From Myxococcales bacterium UBA1203 (GTDB lineage: Bacteria > Myxococcota > Myxococcia > Myxococcales > UBA5297), in the NCBI GenBank assembly GCA_002309695.1, contig DBXV01000004.1, forward strand, positions 36,458 through 100,457: 64,000 nt of DNA, given 5' to 3'. Numbering within the stretch: the stretch's first letter is position 1; each line of letters begins with the position of its first letter. The translations under genes were made by a program, and so were the position numbers. Of this stretch, positions 10,386 through 40,888 are shown piece after piece. A model generated the notes under the pieces. It was given only the letters and a program-made list of their open reading frames with translations, made no database searches and was not told where the DNA came from.

Positions 10386-10454
10386 GTTTCCAGAGGCAGC
10401 CGGCCTTTCGCGAGGGCCATTCACGCGAACGCAGTGACTGAGGAGACAAACGCC

Positions 10455-17800: not shown

Positions 17801-17947
17801 GCAGCCGGGCAGAGCGCAGGCAGCGGCCAGAGAAACAGCCATGACCAATGATGAAATTCTTCCTCGAAATACAAAACGTCCGACAGAGGAAAGAATACCG
17901 GCATTATTTATAGATTTCATTGTCGTCATATCCGTTCTCCTTTCCAT
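11834..17947 (-). CDS. giant (2037 aa) secreted lipoprotein: ~34 tandem Myxococcus-type cysteine-rich repeats (TIGR02232-like, CGDG..D.GE.CD.G) plus a ~530-aa Tyr/Asn/Ser-rich C-terminal beta region
   Basis: Single uninterrupted ORF. N-terminal signal/lipobox (MKSINNAGILSSVGRFVFRGRISSLVMAVSLAAACALPGC). aa ~60-1505 are repeats of the form C(G/R)DG(V/I)xDxGExCDxGxxNS...CRTxCxLP(R/K). The CAYRW transition at nt ~13425 leads into a beta-rich region with four CGNG..E.CDDGN..DGDGCS..C..E.G modules. ATG 17947..17945 overlaps the stop of gene B. Confidence 0.85.
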   Translation of the reverse strand: MERRTDMTTMKSINNAGILSSVGRFVFRGRISSLVMAVSLAAACALPGCNESSKEKEEDASVPVNILCGNGTLDDGEQCDLGEQNSNEPNAECRTDCTLRRCGDGVVDEGEACDLGGANSDAAGAKCRTNCGLPRCGDGVRDSEEACDLGEANSDEPNAECRTDCTLKRCGDSVVDEGEACDNGAANSDTEADACRTNCALPKCGDGVKDADEGCDQGAEVLNDAGEWVSGNSAADEAVCRPNCVPAACGDGVKNSIEQCDEGNANSDTDPLTCRTNCTLPRCGDGVVDNGEAFETAFEEACDEGPEVFDEATGALVSGNSLLPDARCRPDCRVKRCGDGVVDDGEICDLGEQNSDTEANACRTDCTPAHCGDGVTDEGEACDLGAYVADDEGAYVSGNADLPDVPCRSDCTAQRCGDGVKDEGETCDLGLQNSDEPDALCRTDCTAQRCGDGIVDDGESCDLGEQNSDAPNAECRTDCTPRRCGDGVKDADESCDLGDANSDAPNAECRLDCSLRRCGDGVTDDGEQCDEGGDNSDTTADACRTNCALPTCGDGVKDEGEQCDDGQNNSQTANACHVDCTAPRCGDGFVDEGEACDAAEGNSLLPDAPCRPDCQKPRCGDGVKDRREACDNGDANSDTAADACRTNCALPSCGDGVVDSSEACDLGALNGTDGAECGEACKFLSCGDGKVTGNEECDQGEANSEAPDAPCRTNCRARRCGDGVKDSGEECDLGDANSALAGIHGETCRPETCRLASCGDGVVDDGETCDEGDANSNESGASCRKDCTPARCGDGIQDPNESCDNGTANGNGPDVPCRTDCTARRCGDGTRDQNEECDDGPEITDARGNYVSGNSEKPNATCRLDCTPGRCGDGVVDNGEECDLGEQNSDEPGQEGSLCRTTCILATCGDGIVDEGESCDDGPEVLDAQGRYVSGNSNLPNARCRANCMNTRCGDGVKDDGELCDTGSLENELPLDGSDGCMADCSVAEGWMCRWDMGGVSACRQITCGDGYLDEGEECDLGTAGLITNPYLYSAGNGSTAAHKCRLNCRLPWCGDNVVNDGEVCDDGDNSRRWAANAREVRCLACTGWGPYCGDGATTDGERCDNGQSNSDFGGVIGLTCRTNCTPARCGDGVVDSGEDCDFGSIENFGTPDGTQGCDTSCHQMDGWKCTVNASTGASECHLVSCGDGILDEGEECDDGARNTDAPLAAGATEQVCRTNCRLSGCGDAIKDADEVCDDGVNTGAYVGFGGQPKCLECRGYGSYCGDGELDEGEVCDDGVNTGRYAASEGEKKCYHCREYGAFCGDGMISRLNGEECDEGTEYNMMLPNRCRPNCKLPSCGDGLMDRNYGEYCDDGVNDGTYGHCLPGCKGTGPVCGDGRVDEDEGEICDDGIFNGIRGYCNKTCDGQTEAYCGNNYRESGEECDQGTANGFSPEATCRLDCTSMICGDGIRDAREECDEGEDNGGDLCTSSCTRNGRITCGDGIQDPGETCDDGALNGTESSNCTSSCAYRWKDGSSLDLIVYDRLTTDSRRWDRTCSNTLSGGSYYYNVYAIVNETGTEQKLDALLTSNYYNYYSMYYYRGSFPSSSCSNSQSVNYYYGYHNSLKEKVIGVGETAYIVVTSYYTNQTGKSALHLFKSGCGNGLRTGNESCDDGNLEDGDGCSSSCQPENGYCTYTCSYGTCREQCAKYVCGNGYTGGNNESCDDGNLDDGDGCSSTCGVESGWQCVSSQYYNISYERHYLHGSICYPITCGDRIYSNGEGCDDGNTYDDDGCSSSCTVEYGYHCANSYYGNTVWGPRDSLGRQAYGNVYYSLCNPCGDGRMFSGEQCDDYNTDNGDGCNDNCQVEDGYVCSIVQPSVCAESPCGDGVGDTLETCPDTVIRLDSDTYYPVALSDYSDDNTVGGAYNSSGSPYFMNRGSSTTPYYNNNYTYPYKAYTITNDSDTSKRLIFEALFQSGIDGYLYLVPAPFRPRGYGGLSTYTSNDNGSDSTCYSRYQGSHHSCIRYTMSPGQTLTIVATTNGTRTTGAGPVEVKIYEQ
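13425..17770 (-). repeat. coding tandem repeat array (~34 copies x ~126 nt) inside giant gene A
   Basis: Periodic CGDG/CDDG-encoding units visible across the whole interval at both DNA and protein level. Boundaries estimated by residue counting. Confidence 0.7.
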
Positions 17948-20900
17948 TAGTCCTCAGTATAAACATTAACTCTGGCCAGACCGCCGCCTGTCAGGCGTGT
18001 ATCATTGGTTGTCACGACAACCGATACGGTCTCGCCCGGCGCCAATGTATAATGCAGACAGGAATGACCGGTTCCCTGATTGCCTGTGTACGGAGTCTTA
18101 CAAGATTCTTCTGAGCCGCCCCATGTGGATGTCAGCCAGCCTGACCTTGACGAAGGATTAAACGGCGGGGTGAATAATTCGATAACGCCATTTCTCTCGT
18201 ATTTTGCTTCAATAATCAGCGCCTTATATTCAGATGTCGCATTCGTTAATGTGTAAGCGCGGAAGGGCGAGAATCCGCAATTATCCTGATTTTGGCTCTG
18301 CTGACTCGGAGAGCATGAATACTTCGGATAAATATAAGGCGTATCAATGACGCTGTTTAATGTTCCGCCCAGAAGATCTCCTTCTTCCGCCGACAGAGCC
18401 AGAGGGAACTCGGTCGAATTAGTGATCTTTATTCCGCATTCAGCACCTTCCATGACGCCGTCGCCGCAGACATCGGGGCCGCACATGGAGGGCCATGAAG
18501 CTGAACAAATATATCCATCTTCTACTTGGCACGCAGAGCTGCATCCGTCGCTGCCAGCCAGATTCCCGTCATCGCAGCTCTCACCGCCCTTCACCCTGCC
18601 ATTACCGCAGAAATCGCAGGAAGACATGGCAGACCAGACGTGCATGGCCAGAGTGCTGCTGATAGTCTGAGTCAATGTCTGATCTTCAATTGTGCATGAA
18701 GCATTCGCCTCCACTGTACAATCGGCAGCGCAGCCATCTCCATCTGCATTGTTGCCGTCGTCACATTCCTCGTTGCTGTCTTGGAAGCCATCACCGCAAA
18801 TGTTGGCTTCACAATGATTACCCACGTAGAAGCGTGAAACATCATCCGTCATATAAGTATAAACGGCCTGAATACATGTGCGTCCATCCTCGATGGTGCA
18901 GTCGGCAGCACATCCGTCACCATCTTCCCGGTTTCCATCATCGCATTCCTCAAAACCGTCTCTCGAACCATTGCCGCACATGGGGCTTTCAGGCTCAATA
19001 AGCTGATTGGCAGACAGGCATTCCCCGTCGTAGCAGGGGCACATAAGTTTGGTAAAGCCCTCCCAGCACCAGGCCTCGCAGCGGCCATACTCCGACTTGC
19101 AGTCGCTGCTGCATCCATCGCCGTCGATGTTATTTCCATCATCGCATTCTTCACCGTGGTAACTATCCCCATACCAAATAGGATAGCCGTCGGCGCCGCG
19201 TTCCAGATCACGAATGCCATTGCCGCAGCCCGTTTTGGCAATGCGAATCAGACCATGACAATTCTGCATTTCCGAGTAGGAATAGTCATTATCATAGGTG
19301 GATATTATTATGTAAGCGGTTCGTCCCGCAGGAAGGGACATTTCCTGCAAAATACTCTGCCATGAATCCCCGCAGTCATCGTCGTCACCATCATCATTGT
19401 AATTACAGCCATTGTTTGGGAAATTATCCAAATAATAGAAAAGATAACCGTCACAGCTAAAGTTAGCTTTAATATCAATGATCAAATCTTCAGTTGTTTC
19501 ATTAGTCAGAGCATATTTCTGATAGCGATGGGTTCCTGGCATTAGAACATCAGTACACTGGCTGTTGTGCCCATCATACCAATAGGGGCGTTCCCACGTC
19601 GGACTCGATTCATCCAAGGCATGGAAAATCGTCCAACGGGCATTGGGATCAGTCCAGCGATATGCACATTCTGATGTGCAGTTAGAGCCTTCGGTTCCAT
19701 TCAGGTCGCCGTCGTCGCAGGCTTCACCCGGATCCTGAATACCGTCGCCGCAGGTCGCCTCTCCTGCGCGCTTGCAGTCTGTTGTGCAGAGTTCGCCGCC
19801 GTTGTCGCTGCCGAGGTCGCAGTCTTCCATGGCATCTCTGCGTCCATCACCGCACACAATGGAAGTGCAGTCGGAATGGCAGGTCGAAACGGGGAATTCG
19901 CCATTGTAGTATTCGTCATCACACTCTTCTCCCTCATCCACATTGCCGTCGCCGCAGAAAGCCGCCACAGCCAGGCCCGGATCGCTGGAAGAGGTCATGG
20001 CCGTGCAGCTGACATTGCACCTGCCGGGGAGGCCATTGAGGATGCCGTCGTCGCAGTTTTCGATGCCGTTCTGAATGCCGTCGCCGCAGCCAAAGGCCAG
20101 CGCGCTGCAGTTGGACATGCAGTGTCCGTAGGTGCCGTCGTTGATGCCGTCGTCGCACCACTCGCCCACGTCGAGAATGGCGTCGCCGCAGCCGGCAAAG
20201 ACACATGAAGTCCGGCAGGGGGGAACCATTTCAGAGCCGGTCATGGGCGCATCGGTGTTTCCCGCGCCGTCGTCACACTGCTCGCCATTGGAGGGCACGC
20301 CGTCGCCGCAGTAGCTGTTCCACGACTGGCACCTGCTGCAGGTGCGTCCGGCGGCCGTGGGGGAATAGCGGCCTGGCGTGTTCACGCCGTCGTCGCAGAC
20401 TTCGCCCTTATCCGCATCCACATGGCCGTCGCCGCAGTGGGCGTCGAAGGAAGCGCACCCGGGGGCACAGATGGGCGCCTGTCCCGCTGCCGCATAGCCG
20501 CCCGCGTTCACGCCGTCGTCGCAGGCTTCACCGCTGTCCACGATGCCGTCGCCGCATCCGGCAATTTTGCACGTCGTCCGGCAGACAGCGGTGGTCTCGT
20601 GTCCGGTCAGGGGCGCGTCGCTGTTGCCCGCCGAGGTGACGGCGGGATTCGTGACCATGCCCACGGTGCCGTTGTCGCATTCCTCGCCTTCATCCAGCCA
20701 GCCGTTGCCGCAGCCCACTGTCCGGCAGCTGGTGACGCCGCCCGTGACAGAGCACGTCCAGCCGCTCGCCACCTGGCAGGACGCGGTGCAGCCGTCGGTG
20801 CCGTCCAGAGGCTTCGTCCGATCGAGACTTCCAGTGTCGCAGGATTCGCCGGGGTCCAGAACGCCGTCGCCGCAGCGGGCGGCCATGCAGTTCATCCGGC

Positions 20901-23900
20901 AGAGCGCGCCGGGTGCGTTGCTGTTGTCAGATCCCGCGTCGCAGGTTTCTCGTGCATCCACGATGTTGTCGCCGCAGATGACCTTCGTGCAGTCTGCGCG
21001 GCAGGTGGGATTGGCGCCGGCGCCGTTCAGGCGGCCGTTGTCGCATTCTTCGCTGGTGTCCTTTACGCCGTCGCCGCAGGAGGGCAGCTTGCAGTTTTTG
21101 CGGCAGGCTGCGCCTTCCGTGTCTGCATTGCCGGGGGTGGTGACGCCGGGATTGGTAATCATTCCCGCCGTGCCGAGGTCGCATTCTTCGCTGGCATCCT
21201 GATAGCCGTCGCCGCAGATGATGGGACGGCAGGAAGTCGCGCCCGTGGCGCCGACGCTGTCGCAGATCCAGCCATTCCTGACCTGGCACGCGGCGGTGCA
21301 TCCATCCGCGCCGCTGAGCATGGACATGCTGTCGATGCTGCCCGTGTCGCAGACCTCGCCCGGATCCAAAATGCCGTCGCCGCAGCGGCCGGGCAGGCAA
21401 TTCTCGCGGCAGGCGGCACCGGCCGCGTTGGAGTTGGCGGCGGCCAGATCGCAGGCTTCACCGCTGTCCACCACGCCGTCGCCGCACTTGGGCAGCGTGC
21501 AGTCCGGGCGGCACGCTGCGTCGGCCAGATTGCTGTTCTGACGTCCGGCATCGCAGGCCTCGCCGCTGTCCACCACGCCGTCGCCGCATCTGGGCAGCGT
21601 GCAGTCCGTCCGGCACTCAGCATTGGGCGCGTTGCTGTTGGAGGAGCCCTTGTCGCATTCCTCGCCTTCATCCTTCACGCCGTCGCCGCAGCGGGGACGC
21701 GTGCAGTCCGTCCGGCACGCGGAATCCGCCGCGTCGCTGTTCTCTTCACCCAAGTCGCAGACCTCGCCCACGTCGATCACGCCGTCGCCGCAGCGTGCGT
21801 AGGTGCAGTCAGGACGGCAGGTGATGCCGTGGGTGCCGCCGACCGAGGCGCTGTTGGCCTTGCCCGCGTCGCACTCCTCGCCCTCGTCCTTCACGCCGTC
21901 GCCGCACTTGGGCAGCGTGCAGTCCGTCCGGCAGGCCGCGCCGGCCACATCGGCGTTGGCGCTTCCCAAATCGCATTCCTCGCCCGGGTCCTGGATGCCG
22001 TCGCCGCAGCCGCTCCTGAGGCAGCTGCTTCTGCAAATGGCACCGGCCGCGTCGCTGTTGCCGGAGACATAGGCGCCCGTTTCGTCCAGAACTTCCGGCC
22101 CCTCGTCGCAGGCCTCACTGTTCAGGCTGTCCACCACGCCGTCGCCGCAGCGCCGCGGCTGGCAGTCGGGACGGCACGCTGCATTGGCGCGCAGGCTGTT
22201 CATCCGCCCCTCGTCGCACACCTCTGCATGGACGGTTTCAAAGGCCTCGCCCACGTCGATCACGCCGTCGCCGCATCTGGGCAGCATGCAGTTCGTCCGA
22301 CAGGCCAGTGCCGCCGTGTCGCTGTTTTGTTCGCCCTCGTCGCAGTCCTCGGCCGCATCCTTCACGCCGTCGCCGCACTTGGGCAGCGTGCAGTCAGGAC
22401 GGCAGTCAGCGTCGGGCAGCCGGCTGTTGCCCAAAACGTAAGCGCCCGAATCGTCCAGAACCTCTTCGCCCTCGTCGCAGGCCTCATCCGCCGACTTCAC
22501 GCCGTCGCCGCAGCGGGCAGGCGTGCAGTCAGGACGGCAGGCAGCCATCGGAGACGCACTGTTGCCGGCAGTCCACGCGCCCGATTCATCCAGGACTTCC
22601 TCGCCGTCGTCGCAGGTCTCGCCGTCATCAATCACGCCGTCGCCGCAGTGCGCCGCCTGGCAGTCCGTCCGGCAGGCGCCGGAAACCACGTCACTGTTGC
22701 CCGAAACGTAGGCGCCCTCTTCGTCCGTCACGGTCTCGCCGTCGTCGCAGGTCTCGCCGTCATCAATCACGCCATCGCCGCAGTATGCGGCCTTGCAGTC
22801 CGTTCGGCAGGCACCGGCAATCACGTCGCTGTTGCCAGAAACGTAGGCTCCCTCTTCGTCCGTCACGGTCTCGCCGTCGTCGCATTCCTCATCGGCAGAC
22901 TGCACGCCGTCGCCGCAGCGGGCAGGCGTGCAGTCAGGACGGCAGGCAGCCATGGGAGAGAGGCTGTTGCCCGAGAAATAGACGCCGGTCTCGTCCATGT
23001 TCTCAGGCCCGTCATCACAGGTCTCGCCGTCATCAATCACGCCGTCGCCGCAGTGCGCCGCCATGCAGTTCGTCCGGCAGGCGCCGGGAACGGTGTCGCT
23101 GTTGCCCGAGACGTAAGTGTCCTCGTCATCCGTCACGGTCTTGCCGTCGTCGCAGGCCTCGCCCTCGTCCTTCACGCCGTCGCCGCACCTGGGCAGCGTG
23201 CAGTTCGTTCGGCAGGTGTCCGGGAGCGTGTCGCTGTTGCCCGAGACATGGGCGCCCTCGTCATCCAAAACTTCCGCGCCCTCGTCGCAGTCTTCGCCCG
23301 CGTTGGGAACGCCGTCGCCGCACGAGGCCAGACGGCACTCAGGCAGGCAGTTGGCGCCCGGCGCGCTGCTGTTGCCCGAAATCCACGCGCCCGATTCCTC
23401 GTCGAGAACTTCCGCGCCCTCATCGCAGCCCTCATCTGCCGATTTCACGCCATCGCCGCAGCGGGCGGGTGTGCAGTCAGGACGGCAGCTGGCCGCCGGA
23501 GAGAGGCTGTTGCCGGACGTCCATTCGCCCGACGTCTCATCGAGAACTTCCGCGCCGTCGTCACACGTCTCGCCCTCGTCCTTCACGCCGTCGCCGCAGT
23601 GCGCCACCATGCAGTTCGTCCGGCAGGCGCCGGGAATGGTGTCGCTGTTGCCCGAGACGTAAGCGCCCGATTCGTCGAGGACTTCCGCGCCGTCGTCGCA
23701 TTCTTCGCCCTCGTCCTTCATGCCGTCGCCGCACTGAGGAAGGGTGCAGTCCGCCCGGCAGGGAACGTCCTGAATGCCCGGGTCGCAGGCCTCGCCTTTG
23801 TCCAGAACGCCGTTGCCGCACAAAACGGTCGTGGGCGGATCAATCACCTGAATTTTGTCCTCGCCGCACCCGCCGCCGGTCGCCAGCGCCACAACAGCGA

Positions 23901-23976
23901 TGCAGGAACCCAAAAGCGTTTTGAACTTTTTGCAGGCAAACACAGCCTCAGCCTGAGCCCGGAATGCGACTTTCAT
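17947..23976 (-). CDS. giant (2009 aa) secreted lipoprotein, paralog of gene A: ~33 Myxococcus-type Cys-rich repeats plus a ~570-aa C-terminal beta region
   Basis: ATG 23976..23974. Signal sequence (MKVAFRAQAEAVFACKKFKTLLGSCIAVVALATGGGCGED). Same repeat and C-terminal architecture as gene A. The C-terminal last ~50 aa are conserved between the two (SHSC(I/L)(R/H)YT..PG(Q/E)T...V.TTN.TR.TG.G). Stop TAA 17949..17947 overlaps the gene A start (TAATG). Confidence 0.85.
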   Translation of the reverse strand: MKVAFRAQAEAVFACKKFKTLLGSCIAVVALATGGGCGEDKIQVIDPPTTVLCGNGVLDKGEACDPGIQDVPCRADCTLPQCGDGMKDEGEECDDGAEVLDESGAYVSGNSDTIPGACRTNCMVAHCGDGVKDEGETCDDGAEVLDETSGEWTSGNSLSPAASCRPDCTPARCGDGVKSADEGCDEGAEVLDEESGAWISGNSSAPGANCLPECRLASCGDGVPNAGEDCDEGAEVLDDEGAHVSGNSDTLPDTCRTNCTLPRCGDGVKDEGEACDDGKTVTDDEDTYVSGNSDTVPGACRTNCMAAHCGDGVIDDGETCDDGPENMDETGVYFSGNSLSPMAACRPDCTPARCGDGVQSADEECDDGETVTDEEGAYVSGNSDVIAGACRTDCKAAYCGDGVIDDGETCDDGETVTDEEGAYVSGNSDVVSGACRTDCQAAHCGDGVIDDGETCDDGEEVLDESGAWTAGNSASPMAACRPDCTPARCGDGVKSADEACDEGEEVLDDSGAYVLGNSRLPDADCRPDCTLPKCGDGVKDAAEDCDEGEQNSDTAALACRTNCMLPRCGDGVIDVGEAFETVHAEVCDEGRMNSLRANAACRPDCQPRRCGDGVVDSLNSEACDEGPEVLDETGAYVSGNSDAAGAICRSSCLRSGCGDGIQDPGEECDLGSANADVAGAACRTDCTLPKCGDGVKDEGEECDAGKANSASVGGTHGITCRPDCTYARCGDGVIDVGEVCDLGEENSDAADSACRTDCTRPRCGDGVKDEGEECDKGSSNSNAPNAECRTDCTLPRCGDGVVDSGEACDAGRQNSNLADAACRPDCTLPKCGDGVVDSGEACDLAAANSNAAGAACRENCLPGRCGDGILDPGEVCDTGSIDSMSMLSGADGCTAACQVRNGWICDSVGATGATSCRPIICGDGYQDASEECDLGTAGMITNPGVTTPGNADTEGAACRKNCKLPSCGDGVKDTSEECDNGRLNGAGANPTCRADCTKVICGDNIVDARETCDAGSDNSNAPGALCRMNCMAARCGDGVLDPGESCDTGSLDRTKPLDGTDGCTASCQVASGWTCSVTGGVTSCRTVGCGNGWLDEGEECDNGTVGMVTNPAVTSAGNSDAPLTGHETTAVCRTTCKIAGCGDGIVDSGEACDDGVNAGGYAAAGQAPICAPGCASFDAHCGDGHVDADKGEVCDDGVNTPGRYSPTAAGRTCSRCQSWNSYCGDGVPSNGEQCDDGAGNTDAPMTGSEMVPPCRTSCVFAGCGDAILDVGEWCDDGINDGTYGHCMSNCSALAFGCGDGIQNGIENCDDGILNGLPGRCNVSCTAMTSSSDPGLAVAAFCGDGNVDEGEECDDEYYNGEFPVSTCHSDCTSIVCGDGRRDAMEDCDLGSDNGGELCTTDCKRAGEATCGDGIQDPGEACDDGDLNGTEGSNCTSECAYRWTDPNARWTIFHALDESSPTWERPYWYDGHNSQCTDVLMPGTHRYQKYALTNETTEDLIIDIKANFSCDGYLFYYLDNFPNNGCNYNDDGDDDDCGDSWQSILQEMSLPAGRTAYIIISTYDNDYSYSEMQNCHGLIRIAKTGCGNGIRDLERGADGYPIWYGDSYHGEECDDGNNIDGDGCSSDCKSEYGRCEAWCWEGFTKLMCPCYDGECLSANQLIEPESPMCGNGSRDGFEECDDGNREDGDGCAADCTIEDGRTCIQAVYTYMTDDVSRFYVGNHCEANICGDGFQDSNEECDDGNNADGDGCAADCTVEANASCTIEDQTLTQTISSTLAMHVWSAMSSCDFCGNGRVKGGESCDDGNLAGSDGCSSACQVEDGYICSASWPSMCGPDVCGDGVMEGAECGIKITNSTEFPLALSAEEGDLLGGTLNSVIDTPYIYPKYSCSPSQQSQNQDNCGFSPFRAYTLTNATSEYKALIIEAKYERNGVIELFTPPFNPSSRSGWLTSTWGGSEESCKTPYTGNQGTGHSCLHYTLAPGETVSVVVTTNDTRLTGGGLARVNVYTED
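19670..23830 (-). repeat. coding tandem repeat array (~33 copies) inside giant gene B
   Basis: Same periodic CGDG/CDDG units as gene A. Boundaries from residue counting. Confidence 0.7.
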
Positions 23977-24357
23977 CTGCGTCCCCTCTCTCCCCTGAAA
24001 AAGATGCGTTCACTCAATGCAGCTTTTCAAAAGCAGCGGCCAATTCCCCACAAACAGGCGCATTCAATCAAACCGGACGAAAGCAGGGAAGAATTTCCTT
24101 CGTTGCCGAGTCAAAAAAACACGATGTACCGAATTAACGCGCCTGTATTTACAGACGGCACTTTTGAAGACAGGAGAAATAATAAAGAATGGACGCACCT
24201 TCACCTCCCGCCAGGCATCAATTTGTCCTGGAAATTCTCAAAAAATGCGTTGCGCGGTTTTGGTGAATCTGCTGAGTATTTTGTCCAGCAATTCAGCCCT
24301 TCAAAAAGAGAGTTATGTTCTCCTCATTTTTCTCTTCCTTCCCCTCGGAGGTTCCTC

Positions 24358-25242
24358 ATGCCAAGACTTGGACAAACAAATGACTGGGACAACGATAATT
24401 GGGACAGCGGCAATAACGACCAGAATTTGGGAGATAAACTTCAGCATTCGCAGGAAGCGGCCCGTCTGGCGGCGTTTGGCGGCATGGATCGTGTCCAGAG
24501 CGATGGAGAAGCAATAGAATTTCTTGATGATGATAATACAAGCAATACTACAAATAATGTAATTGATGACGAAGATGAAGTTTTTATGGAGAGCCGGCGC
24601 CAATTTATGGGCCGTGTTTACAACTGGATGTTTGGCGGCCTCGCGCTGACGGCAGCGGCGGCGTGGTTTGTTTCACATTCCCAGGAGGCCCTGCAGCTTC
24701 TGATGCCGATTATGGGACAATTGCTGTTCGTGCCATTGGTTCTGGTTATTGTTATGAATCTGTGCATGAACAAAATGTCCGCGGCCGTCATGAGATTTTG
24801 TTTTATTCTTTACGCCGCTGTGACGGGCATCACGTTCGCGCCCATCTGCCTCGCCTACAAAATTTCCTCTCTGGCATCGGCATTTGCCGTCACATCCGCA
24901 ATGTTCGCCGCGCTCAGCCTCTACGGCCACTTCACGCGGCGCAATCTGTCCGGTCTGGGCGCTTTCTGCCTCATGGGCCTCGTCGGCGTGCTTCTGGGCA
25001 GCATCATCAATTTGTTCCTGGGCAATCCCATGGTGGATTTCATCGTCACCTGCTCAGGAATTATCGTATTTGCGGGATTGACGGCCTACGACACCAAAAA
25101 GCTGAAAACTATTCATAAGAATCTTTACGCCCACGGGGGAAATGATGAAAAAACACAGAAAATGGCCATCCGCGGTGCGCTCATACTTTATCTGGATTTC
25201 ATCAATCTGTTCCTGAAACTTTTAAGCCGCCGCAGGCGATGA
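24358..25242 (+). CDS. Bax inhibitor-1/YccA family membrane protein with an unusual ~80-aa Asn/Asp-rich N-terminal extension
   Basis: ATG 24358 with GGAGG 6 nt upstream. C-terminal GALILYLDFINLFLKLL is the family signature motif. Seven hydrophobic helices from FGGLALTAAAAWFV onward. N-terminus MPRLGQTNDWDNDNWDSGNNDQ...DDDNTSNTTNNVIDDEDE is low-complexity and low-GC. Alternative in-frame starts exist (MDRVQSD, MESRRQF). In the ORF track this gene is fused to an antisense shadow ORF (20422..25242). Confidence 0.8.
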   Translation: MPRLGQTNDWDNDNWDSGNNDQNLGDKLQHSQEAARLAAFGGMDRVQSDGEAIEFLDDDNTSNTTNNVIDDEDEVFMESRRQFMGRVYNWMFGGLALTAAAAWFVSHSQEALQLLMPIMGQLLFVPLVLVIVMNLCMNKMSAAVMRFCFILYAAVTGITFAPICLAYKISSLASAFAVTSAMFAALSLYGHFTRRNLSGLGAFCLMGLVGVLLGSIINLFLGNPMVDFIVTCSGIIVFAGLTAYDTKKLKTIHKNLYAHGGNDEKTQKMAIRGALILYLDFINLFLKLLSRRRR

Positions 25243-25253
25243 CTGAGAGGGCA

Positions 25254-25298
25254 TAAAAAAATCCCCTCTCCATATTTGTTTGGAGAGGGGATTTTTTT
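25254..25298. terminator. bidirectional rho-independent terminator between the convergent BI-1 and FISUMP genes
   Basis: aaaaaaatcccctctccatatttgtttggagaggggattttttt: 10-bp stem with an A-run on one side and a T-run on the other. Confidence 0.75.
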
Positions 25299-25324
25299 GT
25301 CAGCATTTCTTTTTATCTGTGAGT

Positions 25325-28228
25325 TTACTTCTTAATACACCGCACCGAAAGCGCCGACGTTTTTGCGGAAACAAACATGTCCATCTTGACGCTGCTCACC
25401 GAGGTAGTCACAGGAATTCTGTTCAAATACATTCCCCAGCCTTCACTGTCGGTGGAGGCATCCGAGGTCCAGAAGGCGGCGACCTCACCAAAACCGAGGT
25501 AAGTCTCCCTGTAATAACCCGCGGGCACCGCTGCAAAACCATAAGTATCAATGCCATTATTGAACAAGCCGCTTTTCCAGCTTTTATCCATTAATTCGGT
25601 CGGGAAGCTGGCGGTATTCAGCAGCGCCTCATATTCGGCTTTTGTCGGCAGCCGCCATCCGGACGGGCAGAAATTTCCGCCGGAAGCTGTATCCCAGTCA
25701 TAGAGCAGCCCATAGGCGGTCATATTATTCTGGTTTCCATTGGGATAAGTATAATCCAAATAAGCCTGTGAATGAGGAACATGATCCACTGTTTTCCTCT
25801 TTCTCTTATAATTCTCGGCCATCCACTCCCGGCCATTGATAATCACGGTTTTATATACATTATTTTCAATATCCTTCACAGAACCGTAGGCCGTGCAGTT
25901 TTCGCCATAGCCGCTGCTGCATTCATCGCAGTCGCTGCCGGTCCACAGTCCCGTGCAGGTGCCGCTCACGCAGTGCCCCGTCTTTTGATCGAGCGTTCCG
26001 TGCGCGCATTTCACACGAATGTCGCAGTTCACGCCAAGCCAGCCCTCGTCGCACGTGTAATCCTTAATGCAGCGGACCGATTTCCCTCTGCTCCGCTTGT
26101 CGTCCATCATACCGGCGCGGGCAGTACCGTCGGTTCCCTTGCTAATCGCCAGTTCCCAGGCGGCATCAAACGCGGTTTCATCCGATTCCGTGGACGTCCA
26201 GAAGGAGGTGGTGCTTCCCAAACCATCGTATGTTCCGTCTTCCCAAAAACCCGCGGGAAGGGCGCCAAAATGATACGTATTCTGACCGCCCCAGCTTTCA
26301 GCCATTAAATTCTTCGCTCCGGCCGCAGTTGGCCCGCCGACATGCGCCAACAGATATTCAAATTCTTCTTTTGTCGGCAAATGCCAGCCGCTGGGGCAAA
26401 CTCTCTTGGCATCATTCCACACATAGAGACAGCCATAGTTTTTAACAAAATCAGGGACCGCCTCGATATTGGCATGGCAGGTAATTGTGCCCAAATCGAT
26501 TTTGTCTGGATTGCTCCCCATGGCCATATTTTCGGCCGTCCAGACGTGATTTCCAATACCGACGATATTGTATTTATTGCCCTCGCCGTCGGTGATGGAA
26601 TCAAACTCCGCGCAGTTGTCGCCATAGCCGCCGTTGCACACATTGCAGTTGGCGCCGGTCCATTTGCCCGAGCATTCATCGCAGTCCCGGCCGGCGAATC
26701 TTTCCTCGCAGCTGCCGCTGATGCAGTGACCTGTCTCGGGATTGAGTTCACCGTGAACGCTGCATTTCTTTTCAATATCGCAGTTTGCGCCCAGCCAGCC
26801 GGAAGCGCACTGGTCGCAGTTCGGACCGTCCCAGCCGGCATCACACGAGGAACATTGCCCGTCGCCGTCCCTGCCCTCTTTACAAATGCCATGCTTGCAG
26901 GTGCATTCACCGCAATTCTCGCCAAAGTGACCGGCCGAGCAGTCCTGATAAGCGCTCTCCATAATGCAGCGGACAGAGAGACCGACCTTGGGTCCATTCT
27001 GATCCAGCGAGGCGGTGTTATAACCGAGCAGCAGGGCGTAGTTGCCGTTGGCTGAGCTCTCCGGCTTCGTTGAGGAAGACCAGAGGAAAGTCACATTGCT
27101 GAAATCATTGATCTCACTTGACCACCACCCCGTGGGCATCGCGCCAAAGCCAAAATCATCCCCGCCCTGATTCTGATAACTTTTCCAGGCGTCCGTTTTG
27201 GCAATCAGCGATAAAAAGACATTGCTGCTCGTTTTATGTTCACCCGCATAAGCCAAAAGGTCGTCAAATTCTTCCTTTGTCGGCAGCCGCCAGCCGGCGG
27301 GACACGCTTTGACGGCATCATTCAAATTATAGAGGCAGCCATATTTTTTAATATAATCTGGATCTTTCGCCGTATCGAAATTGCAGGTCACTTCTTCTTC
27401 ATCCTGCAGGGCCATGCTCTCGGCCATCCACTTCCGGCAGTTAATGGCGGTCGTTTTATACGATTTATTGTCGCGCGTGTCGGTCAGTGACCCGATTGTT
27501 TTATCGGCTATTGTGCATTCATCGCAATTCGCCCCGGTCATCAATGTATTCGCGCACTTATTACAGTCAGGACCGGCAAAATTCGGCTCGCAGCTGTCAG
27601 CCGCGCAGTGACCCGTCTCGGGATCGAGCGTGCCATGGACGCATTTCTTCTCAAAATTGCAGTTTTCCCCGGTCCAGCCGGCGCCGCATTGATTACAATT
27701 ATCGCCCGTCCAGCCGGTATTTTCCTGACACGAAGTGCATTTGCCGGTGCCATTCAGGCCAAGACTCGGCGTGCCGTGCTCGCAGGTCGGCGCCTTGTCG
27801 CAGTTTGCGCCCCAATAATTGCCGGTGCATTCATCACAATTATCGCCAGACCAGCCCGTATTGGCCTCGCACGAAGCGCACTGACCATTTCCATGAACGC
27901 CGACGGCCGGCGTGCCGTGTTTGCAGGTAATTGTATCCTGATCGCAGTTCGGCCCCCAGTAATTGCCGGTGCATTCGCCGCAGTTCGGACCAAAATGCCC
28001 GGCCGCCTCGCATTCGTTAATAACGCCGCCGTCCCCGGAGACCACGCCAGAATCAGTATCCTCATCCGCCGGCTTGTCCCCGGAACCCCCGCAGGCCGCG
28101 GCCGAAATAGATAAGGCGAGTGCTGAAATTAAAATAAGAATTGGATTGAAGCATTTGTGTCCAATAGAGGCGCCATCTGTTCCTCCCCCGTCGTACCTAT
28201 TTACTGCGCTTTTATTATTACACTGCAT
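25325..28228 (-). CDS. large (967 aa) lipoprotein: EGF/laminin-EGF-like Cys-rich modules alternating with three Fibrobacter-succinogenes-major-paralogous (FISUMP, TIGR02145-like) domains
   Basis: I place the start at ATG 28228..28226 (MQCNNKSAV...NPILILISALALSISAAACGG, lipobox) with GGAGG upstream. Repeated GxNCxxCxxGWxGxNC modules. Three copies of ...Y(K/N)TVxI...WMAEN...YG(C/L)LY(N/D)W..A...CP.GW(R/H)LPTK.E(F/Y)..LL...SVRCI(K/M), which is the FISUMP signature. GC visibly lower than flanks. Confidence 0.85.
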   Translation of the reverse strand: MQCNNKSAVNRYDGGGTDGASIGHKCFNPILILISALALSISAAACGGSGDKPADEDTDSGVVSGDGGVINECEAAGHFGPNCGECTGNYWGPNCDQDTITCKHGTPAVGVHGNGQCASCEANTGWSGDNCDECTGNYWGANCDKAPTCEHGTPSLGLNGTGKCTSCQENTGWTGDNCNQCGAGWTGENCNFEKKCVHGTLDPETGHCAADSCEPNFAGPDCNKCANTLMTGANCDECTIADKTIGSLTDTRDNKSYKTTAINCRKWMAESMALQDEEEVTCNFDTAKDPDYIKKYGCLYNLNDAVKACPAGWRLPTKEEFDDLLAYAGEHKTSSNVFLSLIAKTDAWKSYQNQGGDDFGFGAMPTGWWSSEINDFSNVTFLWSSSTKPESSANGNYALLLGYNTASLDQNGPKVGLSVRCIMESAYQDCSAGHFGENCGECTCKHGICKEGRDGDGQCSSCDAGWDGPNCDQCASGWLGANCDIEKKCSVHGELNPETGHCISGSCEERFAGRDCDECSGKWTGANCNVCNGGYGDNCAEFDSITDGEGNKYNIVGIGNHVWTAENMAMGSNPDKIDLGTITCHANIEAVPDFVKNYGCLYVWNDAKRVCPSGWHLPTKEEFEYLLAHVGGPTAAGAKNLMAESWGGQNTYHFGALPAGFWEDGTYDGLGSTTSFWTSTESDETAFDAAWELAISKGTDGTARAGMMDDKRSRGKSVRCIKDYTCDEGWLGVNCDIRVKCAHGTLDQKTGHCVSGTCTGLWTGSDCDECSSGYGENCTAYGSVKDIENNVYKTVIINGREWMAENYKRKRKTVDHVPHSQAYLDYTYPNGNQNNMTAYGLLYDWDTASGGNFCPSGWRLPTKAEYEALLNTASFPTELMDKSWKSGLFNNGIDTYGFAAVPAGYYRETYLGFGEVAAFWTSDASTDSEGWGMYLNRIPVTTSVSSVKMDMFVSAKTSALSVRCIKK

Positions 28229-28436
28229 TATACTGCCTCCATGAAAAAAGCCGGAGAAACTCCGGCCGGGTAAAATCCCCCTGTTGATATTGTCAGGCAA
28301 AAAAAGCGGCGGCGTCTATGGAGGCGAAAAAGGCAAGTCAACCGGGAAACATGCCCCCTTGCCTCCCTGTGCCTGTCTGCGCCATAGCGCCCCGCTTTTC
28401 GTGCCTTTCATCATCACTTTGCCCCGCGAGGCCCCC

Positions 28437-29228
28437 ATGAGCGACCAGAAGAAGGACACGCATCCGGCCCAAGACGCCAAAAAAGACGGCGTTGTCATTC
28501 CGGCGCAGCATTCGGCGCTGATTCATTCGCTGCCCGAGGATATGATGGCGCATTTGCGGAATTGTCCGCGCGACAGGCCGGTCATTTTGCTGATGCGGCA
28601 TTCCATCCGCGGGCCTCTGCCCAAATCGGGCGGCGACGAAGTGCCTCTGACGGACGAGGGGCGAAATCTGGCGCGGCAGTTCGGCGGACAAATCGCCCGG
28701 GCCGAGCCTCCGTGCCTTCTGGCGAGCGTCCATTCCAGCCCTGTTCTCCGCTGCCGTCAGACGGCGCAGGAAATTATGAATGGCGCGGACCGCGTTTTTC
28801 CTCCGGACCCCATGCCCTGCCTGTCGCTGCCGGGGATTTTTCTGCTGGACAGCGGCGCGGCCGTGAATGCCTGGCGGGAGCTGGGCGGCGACGAGGTTCT
28901 GCGCCGCATGTCTCTGGAAGTGCCGCTGCCTCTGCCGGGAATGACGCCTGTCGAGAGCGCGGTGGCGGCCGTTTTGATTCAGATGTTCAGCAAAACAGAC
29001 AATTTACCTGGCCTGCATGTCTTTGTGACCCACGACGCCATCGTCCTGCCCGTGGCCGCGCGCCTTCTTGGACAAGAGCTGAGCATGAAGGACTGGCCCG
29101 CCTTTCTGGATGGTATTTTTATCTGGAATGATGATCAGGGAAACATCCGCTCTTTATATCAAAAAAATGCGGGCTGTCGGCCAGCGGACAGAATTCTTCA
29201 TCCCGCATCCCCCAAATTGCAGCCTTGA
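28437..29228 (+). CDS. histidine phosphatase superfamily (phosphoglycerate-mutase-like) protein
   Basis: Start at ATG 28437 (MSDQKKD). VILLMRHSIRGP (RH phospho-acceptor motif) and the second conserved His in HVFVTHDAIVLPV. Confidence 0.65.
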   Translation: MSDQKKDTHPAQDAKKDGVVIPAQHSALIHSLPEDMMAHLRNCPRDRPVILLMRHSIRGPLPKSGGDEVPLTDEGRNLARQFGGQIARAEPPCLLASVHSSPVLRCRQTAQEIMNGADRVFPPDPMPCLSLPGIFLLDSGAAVNAWRELGGDEVLRRMSLEVPLPLPGMTPVESAVAAVLIQMFSKTDNLPGLHVFVTHDAIVLPVAARLLGQELSMKDWPAFLDGIFIWNDDQGNIRSLYQKNAGCRPADRILHPASPKLQP

Positions 29229-30020: not shown

Positions 30021-30101
30021 CAGATTCCCGGCTTTCATCAGCCTTCAGCCGCAATCATCTTACCCAACACGAAACAGCTGCTTTTCAGCAGGAGACAAAT
30101 C

Positions 30102-30665
30102 ATGGCCATTGTTGACGATGTTTTGAACGACCTGAAATCCCGCATCGATTCCACCCTCGATGTTCTCCGCAAAGAATACACGCGCATTCGGACCGGCCGT
30201 GCCAGCCTGTCGCTCCTCGACGGCGTTCGCGTGGATTACTACGGCACGCCGACCCCTCTGAACGGCGTGGCGAATATGACCGTGGCCGACCCCCGCCTCA
30301 TTATTGTCCGCCCCTGGGAAAAGAAAATGGTTCAGGTGGTTGATCGGGCACTGCGGGAGGCCAATCTGGGCATCAATCCCGTGTGCGAAGGCGATGTTAT
30401 TCGCCTGCCCATTCCGCCGCTGACCGAGGAGCGCCGCAAGGAAATCGTCAAGCAGGTGAAATCCAAGGCCGAAGAGCGGAAGGTGGCCGTGCGGAATGAG
30501 CGGCGCGACGCCAATGAAATGCTCAAGACCTATCAGAAGGACGGCGAGATTACTGAGGACGACCTGAAAAAAGGTCTGGAGAAAATTCAGAAAGAAACCG
30601 ACGCGGGCATCGCCAAAATTGATGAAATCGCCGCGAAGAAAGAAAAAGAAATCGCCGAGGTGTGA
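30102..30665 (+). CDS. frr: ribosome recycling factor
   Basis: 187 aa; AGGAG RBS. LLDGVRVDYYGTPTPLNGVANMTVADPRLIIVRPWEK...NLGINP typical of RRF. Classical pyrH-frr order. Confidence 0.93.
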   Translation: MAIVDDVLNDLKSRIDSTLDVLRKEYTRIRTGRASLSLLDGVRVDYYGTPTPLNGVANMTVADPRLIIVRPWEKKMVQVVDRALREANLGINPVCEGDVIRLPIPPLTEERRKEIVKQVKSKAEERKVAVRNERRDANEMLKTYQKDGEITEDDLKKGLEKIQKETDAGIAKIDEIAAKKEKEIAEV

Positions 30666-30696
30666 TTTCTTAATTTCTTCAAAATAAAACAAATAC

Positions 30697-30732
30697 AAAG
30701 CCCGGGACATAATATTTGTCTCGGGCTTTTTT
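30697..30732 (+). terminator. rho-independent terminator after frr
   Basis: agcccgggacataatatttgtctcgggctttttt. Confidence 0.7.
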
Positions 30733-30735
30733 ATT

Positions 30736-31010
30736 GCCCTCTCCGTCATCGTCTTCGGCGCTGACAGCTCGCCCGCTAAGATTTTATTCGATATTGTTAT
30801 TAAAACAATTCACATCATCCCTGTATCGCCCGGGATTCCATCCCGGGATGTTATATTTCGCCCCTTTGGGATGGCCCTCTCAGTCATCGCCTTCGGCGCT
30901 GACAGCTCCCCCAAAGGGGGAGCCAAGAAATTAAATAAATTCAGTGAATAATAATCTTGCCTCCCCCTCTGGGGGAGGTGGCGCCGCCAACGGCGGCGAC
31001 GGAGAGGGTT
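30736..31010. repeat. cluster of short interspersed/inverted repeats and nested hairpins (REP/MITE-like) in the frr-flotillin intergenic region
   Basis: Copy 1 (30737-30781) ccctctccgtcatcgtcttcggcgctgacagctcgccc. Copy 2 (30873-30912) ccctctcagtcatcgccttcggcgctgacagctccccc, flanked by the inverted repeats cccctttggg / cccaaagggg. A degenerate inverted copy sits near 30978-31005 (gccaacggcggcgacggagaggg). Extra palindromes: cccgggattccatcccggg, cctccccctctgggggagg. Confidence 0.55.
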
Positions 31011-36803: not shown

Positions 36804-37760
36804 TCAGGCCTCGCCCATGCCGCCGGAGGCGCCGTACCAGGCAGCGGGCAGTCCTGCTTCGTCCCTCACCCGCCCGGCAATGTCCCGCAGCGCCTCGTCG
36901 GGCAAAGGCTGGAAGGGACCGCCGCGGGACGAGCGCGCAGACGTGTAAACCTGAACGCCCCGAATCGCCGCGCCGCCCGCCTTCAAATCGCGCAGGCGGC
37001 CAATCCACGCGCCGATTTCCGCGGGCTGAGGCGGCTCACCTTCGAGAACGCCGAACATGCTCTGGATGAACAGCGGACGGCGGCGCCCCTCGGCCAGCAG
37101 ATTGTCCAAAACCAGCGAAAACGGCACGCGCGCGCGGTTCATGCTCAGGTAGTGCGCCTCTGTTCCCGCATCGAGTTTGGCCCAGATTTCCGCCATCTCA
37201 GGCCCAAGCGCTTCCAGCCCGCGCTGAACGCGGGGCAGGTGCAGCGCCGTGGCATTGGTGATGAGCACCGCTTTGGGAGCGGGCCATTCGCCGCTGCCGC
37301 GCGCCGCGTCTCCCAGACGGCGAATCAGCCGGCAGACCTCGGCAAAGGAGGGCGACAGCGTCGGCTCGCCGGAACCGCTGAGGGCGATGTCGTTCAGCCG
37401 CCGAAATGCGGGCGGCGTCTCACGGAACTGCGCCAGCTGAAACAGCTGCCCGGAGAGCGCCAGGCCGAGAGCACTTTTCAGCTCACTTTCGAGGACATCC
37501 ATCGCCGCGGGGCGGGCCAGCGCCTGAGGATGCGCGCCTTTGTCCGCGTCCGCGCTGGCGGACAGCTCTTCCTGCGTGACGGGGTCGCCCTCTCGCTTCG
37601 CCAGTTCGCTGCAATAGACGCAGCGGAACGTGCAGCGCTCATGCGTCAGGTCGATGCCGATAGAGGCGCCCCGGGAACGCCGGCTGATCACGGGATAGAC
37701 GTAGCGGTTGTTCTCAAAACTGCGGTCGTGGTGCTGGAAGACATTCATGTTCGTGCTCAC
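36804..37760 (-). CDS. radical SAM protein, uncharacterised family (COG0731/TYW1-like core; N-terminal YVYPVISRRSRGASIGIDL...CTFRCVYC)
   Basis: CxxxCxxC (CTFRCVYC) radical-SAM cluster motif and Gly-rich SAM motif GSGEPTL. The track start is GTG 37760, which overlaps the ampG stop; the first ATG is at 37748 (MNVFQHH). Confidence 0.75.
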   Translation of the reverse strand: MSTNMNVFQHHDRSFENNRYVYPVISRRSRGASIGIDLTHERCTFRCVYCSELAKREGDPVTQEELSASADADKGAHPQALARPAAMDVLESELKSALGLALSGQLFQLAQFRETPPAFRRLNDIALSGSGEPTLSPSFAEVCRLIRRLGDAARGSGEWPAPKAVLITNATALHLPRVQRGLEALGPEMAEIWAKLDAGTEAHYLSMNRARVPFSLVLDNLLAEGRRRPLFIQSMFGVLEGEPPQPAEIGAWIGRLRDLKAGGAAIRGVQVYTSARSSRGGPFQPLPDEALRDIAGRVRDEAGLPAAWYGASGGMGEA

Positions 37761-39376: not shown

Positions 39377-39576
39377 GCCCGTGAAAAATCGGCGGAGAAC
39401 GGGGCGGAAGGCGGCGTCTGAACCGCCGGCGCGCCGGATTCCTCAGAGGCGGCCAAAAACAAAACGGCCGCTTCCCCTGAGGAACGGGAAACGGCCGCTG
39501 CAAAACTGAGATTTATCTGACGTGCATGAACCGCTGATTCCGAAGCCCGGCACAAATCTGAGCGGAAGGAGTCACC

Positions 39577-40083: not shown

Positions 40084-40167
40084 TGGGCATCTCCTGGGTC
40101 AGAAGGGTTGCTTCCAAAAAAGGCGCGGCGTCTTTGGGTCAACGCCATCAGGCCGTCAAGCGCCGCC

Positions 40168-40845: not shown

Positions 40846-40888
40846 GTTCCCCGCGTCCTTCCCGCCGGACCGCACCTCGGCGCGCGCC

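Follow-up and report, generated by a model that had tools for sequence, protein, structure and literature searches.

In Fibrobacter succinogenes and other Fibrobacterota, FISUMP domains of ~180 aa occur, often in tandem, behind a lipoprotein signal in extracytoplasmic proteins with a presumed role in attachment. To our knowledge, no FISUMP ligand has been experimentally defined. The domains are numerous in these fiber-degrading bacteria, with 17–119 copies per Fibrobacteres genome against an average of ~0.1 per bacterial genome (PMC4704652), and have been proposed to be attachment or cohesin-like modules (PMC4704652). Structure prediction gives FISUMP domains a C-type-lectin-like fold, of the same bacterial kind as in the variable proteins of diversity-generating retroelements (DGRs; TvpA 2y3c, TaqVP 5vf4, Mtd 1yu0, and Legionella LdtA), the tips of invasin and intimin, the C-terminal domain of Legionella pneumophila Lcl, and the fiber tip of Bdellovibrio bacteriovorus Bd2740. 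Lcl is a type II secreted trimer on a collagen triple-helix stalk, whose disulfide-free C-terminal domain (Lcl-CTD, DUF1566, PDB 8q4e) binds sulphated glycosaminoglycans (PMC11162425). The MAT fiber Bd2740 (PDB 8oks), which is also trimeric and has one tip, is a surface-displayed prey-recognition fiber with a C-type-lectin tip (PMC10769870). Fib_succ_major/DUF1566 domains are targets of DGRs in surface lipoproteins and constitute DGR target category 'd' (PMC5758913).

The gene described here encodes a predicted surface lipoprotein of 967 aa in which FISUMP domains alternate with laminin-type EGF rods. It is an intact open reading frame at 25325..28228 on the minus strand of the window (the whole 64-kb stretch of DNA analyzed), counted from the ATG at 28228, although a longer form starting at a TTG at 28300 is possible. 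The organism is an uncultured member of the Myxococcota; a preliminary description had treated it as a GC-rich deltaproteobacterium, which we correct based on its DinG-type helicase, whose identity is ~50% with the Myxococcus and Archangium proteins and 67% with that of a 'Myxococcales' MAG. DinG homologues in the set P0064–P0069 reach 84% and 64%–67% identity. The gene lies between BI-1 and a His-phosphatase–pyrH–frr group, a position also seen in the independent assemblies L003 (Logan) and L007 (metagenome). Its leader carries a hairpin, and an Rfam scan of the window returned two tRNAs only, with no match in that leader. Several neighboring reading frames with GC1 > GC3 were set aside as shadow frames, and that at 30060–30749 (minus strand) was rejected as a shadow of frr. 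The features of the gene, listed in the order in which they are transcribed, are as follows.

28236..28240, minus strand: Shine-Dalgarno sequence GGAGG, 7 nt 5' of the ATG (read off the sequence).
28091..28228, minus strand: signal peptide with a long n-region and lipobox, aa 1–46, ending ...ALALSISAAA before C46 (PROSITE-like lipobox expression).
28022..28090, minus strand: acidic Gly/Asp/Ser-rich linker, aa 47–69, GGSGDKPADEDTDSGVVSGDGGV (sequence).
27503..28021, minus strand: EGF block A, aa 70–242, 23 Cys, ~3.5 laminin-type EGF units (Pfam EGF_STAB1-2 and EGF_laminin, Cys spacing, motifs).
27963..28005, minus strand: upstream copy of a 43-bp repeat, encoding AGHFGPNCGEC (blastn, comparison with L007).
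26957..27502, minus strand: FISUMP domain 1, aa 243–424 (custom HMM).
26612..26956, minus strand: EGF block B, aa 425–539, 18 Cys (best EGF_laminin stretch 442–489, motifs).
26895..26937, minus strand: downstream copy of the 43-bp repeat, encoding AGHFGENCGEC (blastn, junction alignment with L007).
26060..26611, minus strand: FISUMP domain 2, aa 540–723 (custom HMM envelope 540–723, alignment).
25895..26059, minus strand: EGF block C, aa 724–778, 8 Cys (weak EGF_TEN stretch 723–784, Cys spacing).
25328..25894, minus strand: FISUMP domain 3, aa 779–967, the C-terminal end of the protein (HMM envelope, best Fib_succ_major stretch 795–966, Lcl_C 856–965).

The mature chain thus consists of three laminin-type EGF blocks of decreasing length alternating with three ~180-aa FISUMP domains (182, 184, and 189 aa, within the ~175–200 aa expected for the family). 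TIGR02145 (NCBIfam) matched the protein in three stretches with 308.4 bits (E 2.5e-92) against a curated cut-off of 41.65, as did PF09603 Fib_succ_major with 225.2 bits against 33.9, and Lcl_C/DUF1566 (PF07603) scored 53 bits, above its Pfam gathering threshold. The preliminary description had proposed three FISUMP copies, of a domain it regarded as typical of Fibrobacter and Bacteroidota, combined with EGF/laminin-EGF modules in a lipoprotein. The three TIGR02145 stretches confirm the first point, the published copy numbers show the domain to be rare outside Fibrobacterota, and Pfam, AF2, and Foldseek together support the EGF modules of the predicted lipoprotein. Among the EGF families, EGF_STAB1-2 (PF24887) reached 41.7 bits in five stretches (cut-off 27) and EGF_laminin (PF00053), which the description had named, reached 26.9 bits against a gathering threshold of 21; PF07974/EGF_2, also named there, was absent from the Pfam families reported at E<=1. 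The pattern C-x2-C-x(2-8)-[WFYM]-x-G-x2-C occurs nine times, spread over the three Cys-rich blocks, and 60 of the 63 Cys residues, an even number that would give 30 disulfides, belong to the mature chain. EGF block A was modeled by AF2 with a pLDDT of 88.6, and its best Foldseek matches were the LE modules of laminin gamma1 (1npe_B, E 2e-5; 1klo, E 4e-5; probability 1.0), followed by those of perlecan and netrin.

Lipid anchoring is predicted from the pattern ALALSISAAAC, which ends at C46, later than in typical lipoproteins. The n-region carries K6, R11, and K25 and precedes the h-region FNPILILISALALSISAAA; the two closest relatives (P0006 and P0008) share this long n-region, with lipoboxes at C45 and C50, and lipoboxes are present in most family members. 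Self-BLASTP of the protein returned no internal matches, and the domains were compared with HMMs and MAFFT. The three FISUMP domains are 37%–38% identical to one another and share a core of W, CPxGW[RH]LP, and SVRC; the Cys residues of CPxGW and SVRC are invariant across 46 sequences and are inferred to form a disulfide bond. Variability of the domain peaks at residues 151–170, immediately before SVRC, at about the position that the variable region occupies in DGR-diversified CLec proteins. As for a canonical Ca2+-dependent C-type lectin domain, the Pfam families reported for the protein did not include Lectin_C, and reading of the FISUMP sequences revealed no EPN or QPD motif. Sequence searches found no FISUMP-family member in the PDB, and the sole match of the full protein there, Mdm2 (E 0.38), was judged to be due to chance.

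The internal repeats have left a trace in strain variation. The two 43-bp copies match at 81% by blastn, and in the 95%–99% identical strain L007 the intervening 1068 bp (356 codons) are deleted in-frame, and with them one EGF+FISUMP unit. The repeat acted as a recombination site, and the in-frame loss in so close a strain shows repeat-mediated evolution, with the gene changing through recombination among its internal repeats. The L007 allele also has a stop at codon 26, and the gene may therefore be dispensable in some strains. When one metagenome was scanned with the flanking His-phosphatase, this near-identical strain was the only one found.

The architecture, which the preliminary description had called chimeric, is not a one-off. 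Of the 149 best 50%-identity representatives, 27 likewise alternate EGF and FISUMP modules, including a collinear protein of 2173 aa. So does a second paralogue, P0002, encoded elsewhere in the same sequencing run, and the family is multi-copy in genomes of ~48%–50% GC, including a divergent, probably Myxococcota MAG. MAG Tb.RUG.239 carries at least five such genes and another assembly at least nine on three contigs. FISUMP proteins proving common among relatives had been named as the finding that would count against an unusual, acquired gene, and they are common in the distant, probably Myxococcota lineage covered here. Fibrobacterota members among the matches are 24%–30% identical and lack EGF modules, and in a rough neighbor-joining tree without support values their FISUMP domains cluster apart from those of EGF-bearing proteins. 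A literature search for myxobacterial proteins with EGF-like domains came back empty. Going by its domain order, the protein is a previously undescribed but recurrent architectural variant of the known FISUMP domain family.

A foreign origin of the gene is supported by its composition. As the preliminary description had noted, its GC is lower than that of the surroundings (0.535 against ~0.64 for the window), and its GC3 is 0.615 compared with 0.75–0.90 in housekeeping genes. Because GC3 also falls far below the 0.794 expected from its amino acids (z = -14, where reference genes range from -4.2 to +5.7), the low GC can be traced to an unusual choice of synonymous codons. Paralogue P0002 and the C-terminal thirds of the two adjacent giant lipoprotein genes show the same shift away from the codon usage of this 64% GC genome, which also supports a foreign origin. 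Similarly, the codon log-likelihood, which is largely the GC3 signal again, favors a low-GC lineage for this gene (-0.12 per codon) and not for host genes (+0.05 to +0.32), and codon usage matches a lineage of ~49% GC better than the host. Family genes are compositionally native on the ~48%–50% GC contigs of Tb.RUG.239 and GCA_024712465.1, which, together with the foreign codon usage, makes horizontal acquisition probable. The earlier suggestion of such acquisition is thus consistent with codon usage, but nothing points to Fibrobacter or Bacteroidota as the direct donor because the EGF-type domains group apart in the tree. Based on these data, the gene was probably acquired as a complete EGF-FISUMP cassette from a lower-GC, unsampled donor and not directly from Fibrobacter; the best homologues found by BLASTP are only 31%–36% identical, so no donor can be assigned.

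That same distance would also suit an old resident gene whose low GC3 comes with its class, the repetitive Cys-rich genes for secreted proteins in this genome, owing, for example, to weak expression, selection for slow translation during disulfide folding, or repeat-driven mutation. Paralogue P0002 is merely 34% identical to the window protein, yet its GC3 is nearly equal (0.606, with neighbors at 0.82–0.87), and low GC3 in two paralogues this divergent could be an effect of gene class instead of recent transfer. No integrase, transposase, or tRNA was seen flanking the gene, and low-GC3 parts occur in all three adjacent surface-protein genes. The other two of these genes, at 11834–17947 and 17947–23976 (both minus strand), are the giant Cys-rich neighbors to which the preliminary description had pointed, and they are indeed predicted lipoproteins with lipoprotein-like signals, of 2037 and 2009 aa, with 9% Cys and DUF4215 repeats. 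However, GC3 switches sharply within each giant gene, from ~0.8–0.87 to 0.43–0.59 in the C-terminal third, while the N-terminal 1400 aa are equally Cys-rich and repetitive but host-like in GC3 (z 0.2 and 1.7). Expression level cannot account for a switch within one gene, presumably read as a single transcript, and the native composition of the family in ~48%–50% GC genomes likewise speaks against long residence, which we consider unlikely though deserving of some weight.

The reading we favor, with somewhat more confidence than doubt, is that the probably horizontally acquired cassette gene encodes a lipid-anchored, multivalent surface adhesin or lectin of Myxococcota. The binding role is deduced from the fold and from what is known of distant relatives at 10%–20% identity. 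The EGF rods would be stiff spacers holding the three heads off the membrane, and the heads would each engage a ligand of their own, with glycans, polymers, or molecules on the surface of other cells as the likeliest targets. Different ligands are probable because the heads are just 37%–38% identical and the domain is most variable right before SVRC. Compared with Lcl, the protein has an EGF-rod stalk in place of collagen, a conserved Cys pair in each head, three heads per chain, and a predicted lipid anchor, whereas Bd2740 lacks EGF modules, the FISUMP signature, and a lipoprotein anchor; a role in predation by likeness to Bd2740 is speculative. Unlike Fibrobacterota proteins, which resemble it in predicted extracytoplasmic location and presumed attachment role, the window protein alternates its FISUMP domains with laminin-type rods and belongs to a Myxococcota host. 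Selectins, thrombomodulin, and the LE rods of laminin and netrin resemble it in architecture only, with modules differing in order and number and with a lectin head that is of the bacterial FISUMP type in the window protein, unlike that of eukaryotic C-type-lectin and EGF receptors; nothing suggests that the architecture as a whole was inherited from a common ancestor.

A bolder version, in which horizontally mobile EGF-FISUMP cassettes give some Myxococcota selectin-like arrays of lectin-fold receptors for prey or host surfaces, with valency and specificity varied by recombination of EGF repeats (as in the unit lost from L007) and not by a DGR, seems doubtful to us; if true, its grafting of foreign modules would also account for the drop in GC3 over the last third of each giant gene. 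Quite improbable, in our estimate, is that FISUMP domains are cohesin-like docking modules assembling secreted proteins, such as hydrolases, at the surface of the cell. In favor of docking, a role akin to that of cohesins has been raised as a possibility for TIGR02145 in Fibrobacteres (PMC4704652), and C-type-lectin-like folds often bind proteins (snaclecs, intimin–Tir, Mtd–pertactin). Nonetheless, the scanned reading frames of the window include no linked enzyme gene or dockerin-like partner module, and P0015, another member of the family, has additional starch-binding modules (CBM20/AMPK1_CBM), which point to glycan targets. An enzymatic role like that of FGE (formylglycine-generating or sulfoxide-synthase-type) is highly unlikely: the domains are ~180 aa against 260–290 aa in FGE-like enzymes, identity is just 10%–17% across 135–146 aligned residues, the FGE-sulfatase family gave no Pfam match at E<=1, the invariant residues are one Cys pair and core aromatics, and three tandem copies on EGF stalks suit display. 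Hypermutation by a DGR toward the C-terminal end of a FISUMP domain can be given almost no weight, although the domain class is a known target category (PMC5758913), TvpA, TaqVP, and Mtd are structural neighbors, and variability is maximal right before SVRC, as a blastn comparison of the gene with all 64 kb of the window found intragenic repeats only and no template repeat, no reverse transcriptase was present among the scanned reading frames (part of those in the window), and variation here, in contrast to DGR proteins, consists of module gain and loss through recombination.

For the surface-adhesin reading, the domain boundaries are now defined, and a multivalent surface lectin or adhesin is a testable model. 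We regard the result as a well-supported upgrade in annotation and a modest case of convergent lectin-plus-EGF architecture revealing no new mechanism. For the family, it shows a distinct EGF-alternating FISUMP subfamily that occurs in lineages of Myxococcota and bears signs of module shuffling and of horizontal spread.

The gene is an unbroken minus-strand ORF of 967 aa, running from an ATG at 28228 to a stop at 25325-25327, with an alternative TTG start at 28300 that would add 24 residues. By curated thresholds its product genuinely belongs to the FISUMP (TIGR02145) and Lcl_C families and also qualifies as a laminin/stabilin-type EGF protein. The three FISUMP domains and EGF/laminin-EGF modules read from the sequence in the preliminary description were thus confirmed: TIGR02145 (NCBIfam) scored 308.4 bits over three stretches (E 2.5e-92, cut-off 41.65), and among Pfam families Fib_succ_major scored 225 bits over three stretches, Lcl_C 53 bits, EGF_STAB1-2 41.7 bits over five stretches (cut-off 27), and EGF_laminin 26.9 bits (cut-off 21). 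EGF_2 (PF07974), which had also been proposed, was absent from the Pfam families reported for the protein. FISUMP boundaries were drawn with an HMM built on the three copies, which share 37-38% pairwise identity. Cys-rich blocks precede and separate these domains, with nine matches to C-x2-C-x(2-8)-[WFYM]-x-G-x2-C, in the following layout:

GGAGG box, minus strand, 7 nt 5' of the ATG, read from the sequence
aa 70-242, EGF block A, 23 Cys
aa 243-424, FISUMP 1, HMM
aa 425-539, EGF block B, 18 Cys
aa 540-723, FISUMP 2, HMM
aa 724-778, EGF block C, 8 Cys
aa 779-967, FISUMP 3, HMM

The N-terminus combines a basic n-region, a hydrophobic core, and a lipobox-type ALALSISAAAC ending at C46; the closest relatives (P0006 and P0008) have an n-region of the same unusual length with the lipobox at C45/C50, and lipoboxes are present in most family members. 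The mature chain holds an even number of Cys (60). Immediately 5' of the Shine-Dalgarno box, the coding strand contains a strong terminator-like hairpin (28249-28267, minus strand; eight pairs, six of them G-C, then TTTTTT), which could be a leader/attenuator or could terminate an upstream transcript that is not annotated. It had no Rfam match, and the Rfam scan of the window returned two tRNAs and nothing else.

FISUMP 1 was modeled with AlphaFold2 from a 46-sequence domain alignment (pLDDT 95.9, pTM 0.90). Structural matches included the Legionella Lcl C-terminal domain (8.4, 20% identity), the Bdellovibrio Bd2740 C-terminal domain (8.3), mannose-receptor CRD-4 (8.0), TaqVP (7.9), and Mtd (7.0), followed at lower rank by dozens of animal C-type lectin domains, such as those of E-selectin and thrombomodulin. 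These matches show that the FISUMP domain has a C-type-lectin-like (CLec) fold of bacterial type. The protein falls outside the canonical Ca-dependent C-type lectins: Pfam Lectin_C was absent from its reported families, and inspection found no EPN or QPD motif within the three FISUMP domains. Invariant positions in the alignment were core aromatics and the Cys of CPxGW and of SVRC, and variability peaked at domain residues 151-170, directly before SVRC, which is roughly where CLec proteins diversified by diversity-generating retroelements (DGRs) have their variable region. We rejected the gene as a DGR target, as no template repeat was found in the 64-kb window and no reverse transcriptase among the window ORFs scanned. 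For EGF block A (pLDDT 88.6), the best PDB matches were the three laminin gamma1 LE modules (1npe_B, 1klo; E 2e-5, 4e-5), followed by LE rods of perlecan and netrin and by EGF arrays of Notch ligands, which makes the Cys-rich blocks laminin-type EGF rods.

The combination is recurrent in sequence databases rather than a unique chimera. A word-indexed search found about 15 proteins with FISUMP and EGF (30-36% identity), and an exhaustive search returned 34,528 representatives at E<=1e-3, of which 586 also passed E<=1e-30; FISUMP occurred in 144 of the best 149 representatives and FISUMP with EGF in 27. One of the 27 is collinear with the window protein and carries six FISUMP domains in 2173 aa. 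The alternating architecture was not found in the FISUMP/TIGR02145 papers examined and appears undescribed. One homolog, P0002, came from the same sequencing run and has high-GC neighbors and is therefore a second paralog. Five FISUMP genes lie on three contigs of the MAG Tb.RUG.239 (GCA_016283195.1, GC about 0.49) and nine on three contigs of GCA_024712465.1 (GC about 0.48-0.49). One contig of the latter (L005, 1-11027) carries five in 11 kb, some with EGF modules, interleaved with PIN, RhuM, and Transposase_31 genes, and so places the family in mobile-element-rich surroundings at ~49% genomic GC. The best named relatives of the Tb.RUG.239 ClpC-type chaperone, about 50-62% identical, were from Myxococcota, Myxococcales, "Deltaproteobacteria" MAGs, Anaeromyxobacter, and Vulgatibacter, so Tb.RUG.239 is probably a deep, lower-GC Myxococcota lineage.

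The remaining window is ordinary chromosome, encoding two tRNAs, histidine ammonia-lyase, GAPDH, M23 peptidase, NamZ, a BI-1 family protein, histidine phosphatase, pyrH, frr, SPFH, AmpG, SpoIID/LytB, a DinG/YoaA-type helicase, NAD kinase, a carboxyltransferase 5S subunit, and FabF. Genes for cell-wall turnover (M23 peptidase, the exo-muramidase NamZ, the AmpG muropeptide permease, and SpoIID/LytB) lie at 9411-11651 (plus strand) and 37757-42166 (minus strand). The helicase shares about 50% identity with its counterparts in Myxococcus, Archangium, Corallococcus, and Vulgatibacter and 64-84% with MAG proteins, one labeled "Myxococcales bacterium"; the host is therefore an uncultured member of the Myxococcota, the modern name for what had been called a GC-rich deltaproteobacterium. 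The order frr-pyrH-histidine phosphatase-[gene]-BI-1 recurs in an independent Logan assembly (L003) and in the metagenome contig of a near-identical strain (L007), so the junctions are not an assembly artifact. A 1606-aa ORF at 20422-25242 (plus strand) was dismissed as an Ala/Val/Gly-rich shadow frame antisense to the second of two neighboring giant lipoprotein genes; its reading frame joins that of the genuine BI-1 gene (about 24358/24586-25242), and 600 bp of AT-rich sequence separate giant 2 from BI-1. BI-1, 294 aa as called in L003, may have an Asn/Asp-rich N-terminal extension.

Possible horizontal acquisition had been proposed, in part from the low GC of the gene, within an interpretation that is partly supported overall. 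Its amino-acid content and the codon preferences of 16 reference genes predict a GC3 of 0.794 for the gene, but 0.615 was observed (z = -14; reference genes -4.2 to +5.7); the low GC is thus a codon effect, which amino-acid composition does not explain. GC3 stays uniformly low over the whole gene, whether EGF or FISUMP is encoded, which gives it the appearance of one unit rather than an in-situ fusion. P0002 behaved similarly (GC3 0.606; neighbors 0.82-0.87), and synonymous codon usage in both is closer to the ~49% GC lineage than to the host (-0.12 per codon; host genes +0.05 to +0.32), a test that largely repeats the GC3 signal. Family genes match their neighbors' GC3 in Tb.RUG.239 and on another GCA_024712465.1 contig (L008); on L005 the FISUMP genes span 0.40-0.63, and the mobile-element genes around them 0.38-0.56. 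In a neighbor-joining tree of 94 domains without support values, all domains of EGF-bearing proteins grouped apart from Fibrobacterota-type ones, which gives no indication of a direct Fibrobacter or Bacteroidota donor. On the best reading, neither was the direct donor, and the whole gene was probably acquired from a lower-GC lineage, as yet unsampled, where the family is at home. Two caveats are that the window gene has no mobile-element genes beside it and that its nearest homologs were only about 31-36% identical (BLASTP).

The giants, both built of DUF4215 repeats, are paralogs 44% identical end to end:

11834-17947, minus strand, 2037 aa
17947-23976, minus strand, 2009 aa

The stop of one and the start of the next coincide at 17947. 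With 9% Cys and a lipoprotein-like signal on each, they make "a set of disulfide-rich surface proteins" a fair description. Their N-terminal ~1400 aa are host-like (GC3 0.8-0.87; z 0.2 and 1.7), whereas GC3 falls to 0.43-0.59 (z -19 and -17) over the C-terminal 500-600 aa, where codon usage fits the ~49% GC lineage. Expression level cannot account for such a switch within an ORF, which suggests that foreign C-terminal modules were grafted onto resident repeat proteins in both. This domain-level compositional mosaicism is the most unusual by-product of the analysis.

The L007 strain contig (1-5202) corresponds to 22935-28831 and is 94.5-96.7% identical in the flanks and 99.2% over the 3' 1.7 kb of the gene; recent exchange or a sweep of the segment, or an assembly chimera, may underlie this unevenness. 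Missing from it is exactly the 1068 bp (356 codons) that separate the two copies of a 43-bp intragenic repeat coding AGHFG(P/E)NCGEC. The deletion is in frame, removing EGF block A and FISUMP 1 to leave a two-headed protein; in addition, codon 26 of this allele is a stop codon, perhaps through decay or an error in the metagenome. L007 (JAEEGL014622753.1) and Tb.RUG.239 (JAEEML01) have neighboring WGS prefixes and, by accession proximity only, may share project and habitat; a shared habitat, if true, would make transfer between the two lineages ecologically plausible.

The module order, folds, and signal-type sequence of the window protein are established. The protein would be lipid-anchored and surface-exposed, with EGF rods as putative stiff spacers and three divergent CLec heads that would bind ligands. 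Ligand binding by the heads is predicted from characterized structural relatives: the Lcl C-terminal domain (DUF1566) binds sulfated glycosaminoglycans (PMC11162425), and Bd2740 is a prey-recognition fiber, displayed on the surface, whose C-type-lectin tip is Ca-independent (PMC10769870). Fib_succ_major/DUF1566 domains form the diversified heads of surface lipoproteins, Legionella LdtA among them (PMC5758913), and for TIGR02145 in Fibrobacteres a role in attachment or as a cohesin-like module is proposed (PMC4704652). A Tb.RUG.239 homolog (P0015; contig L006, 10001-12832) with about 10 EGF units and one FISUMP domain has starch-binding CBM20/AMPK1_CBM modules placed between the two, a hint that the family targets glycans. 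From the host phylum, we may speculate that the window protein serves in attachment to prey or substrate.
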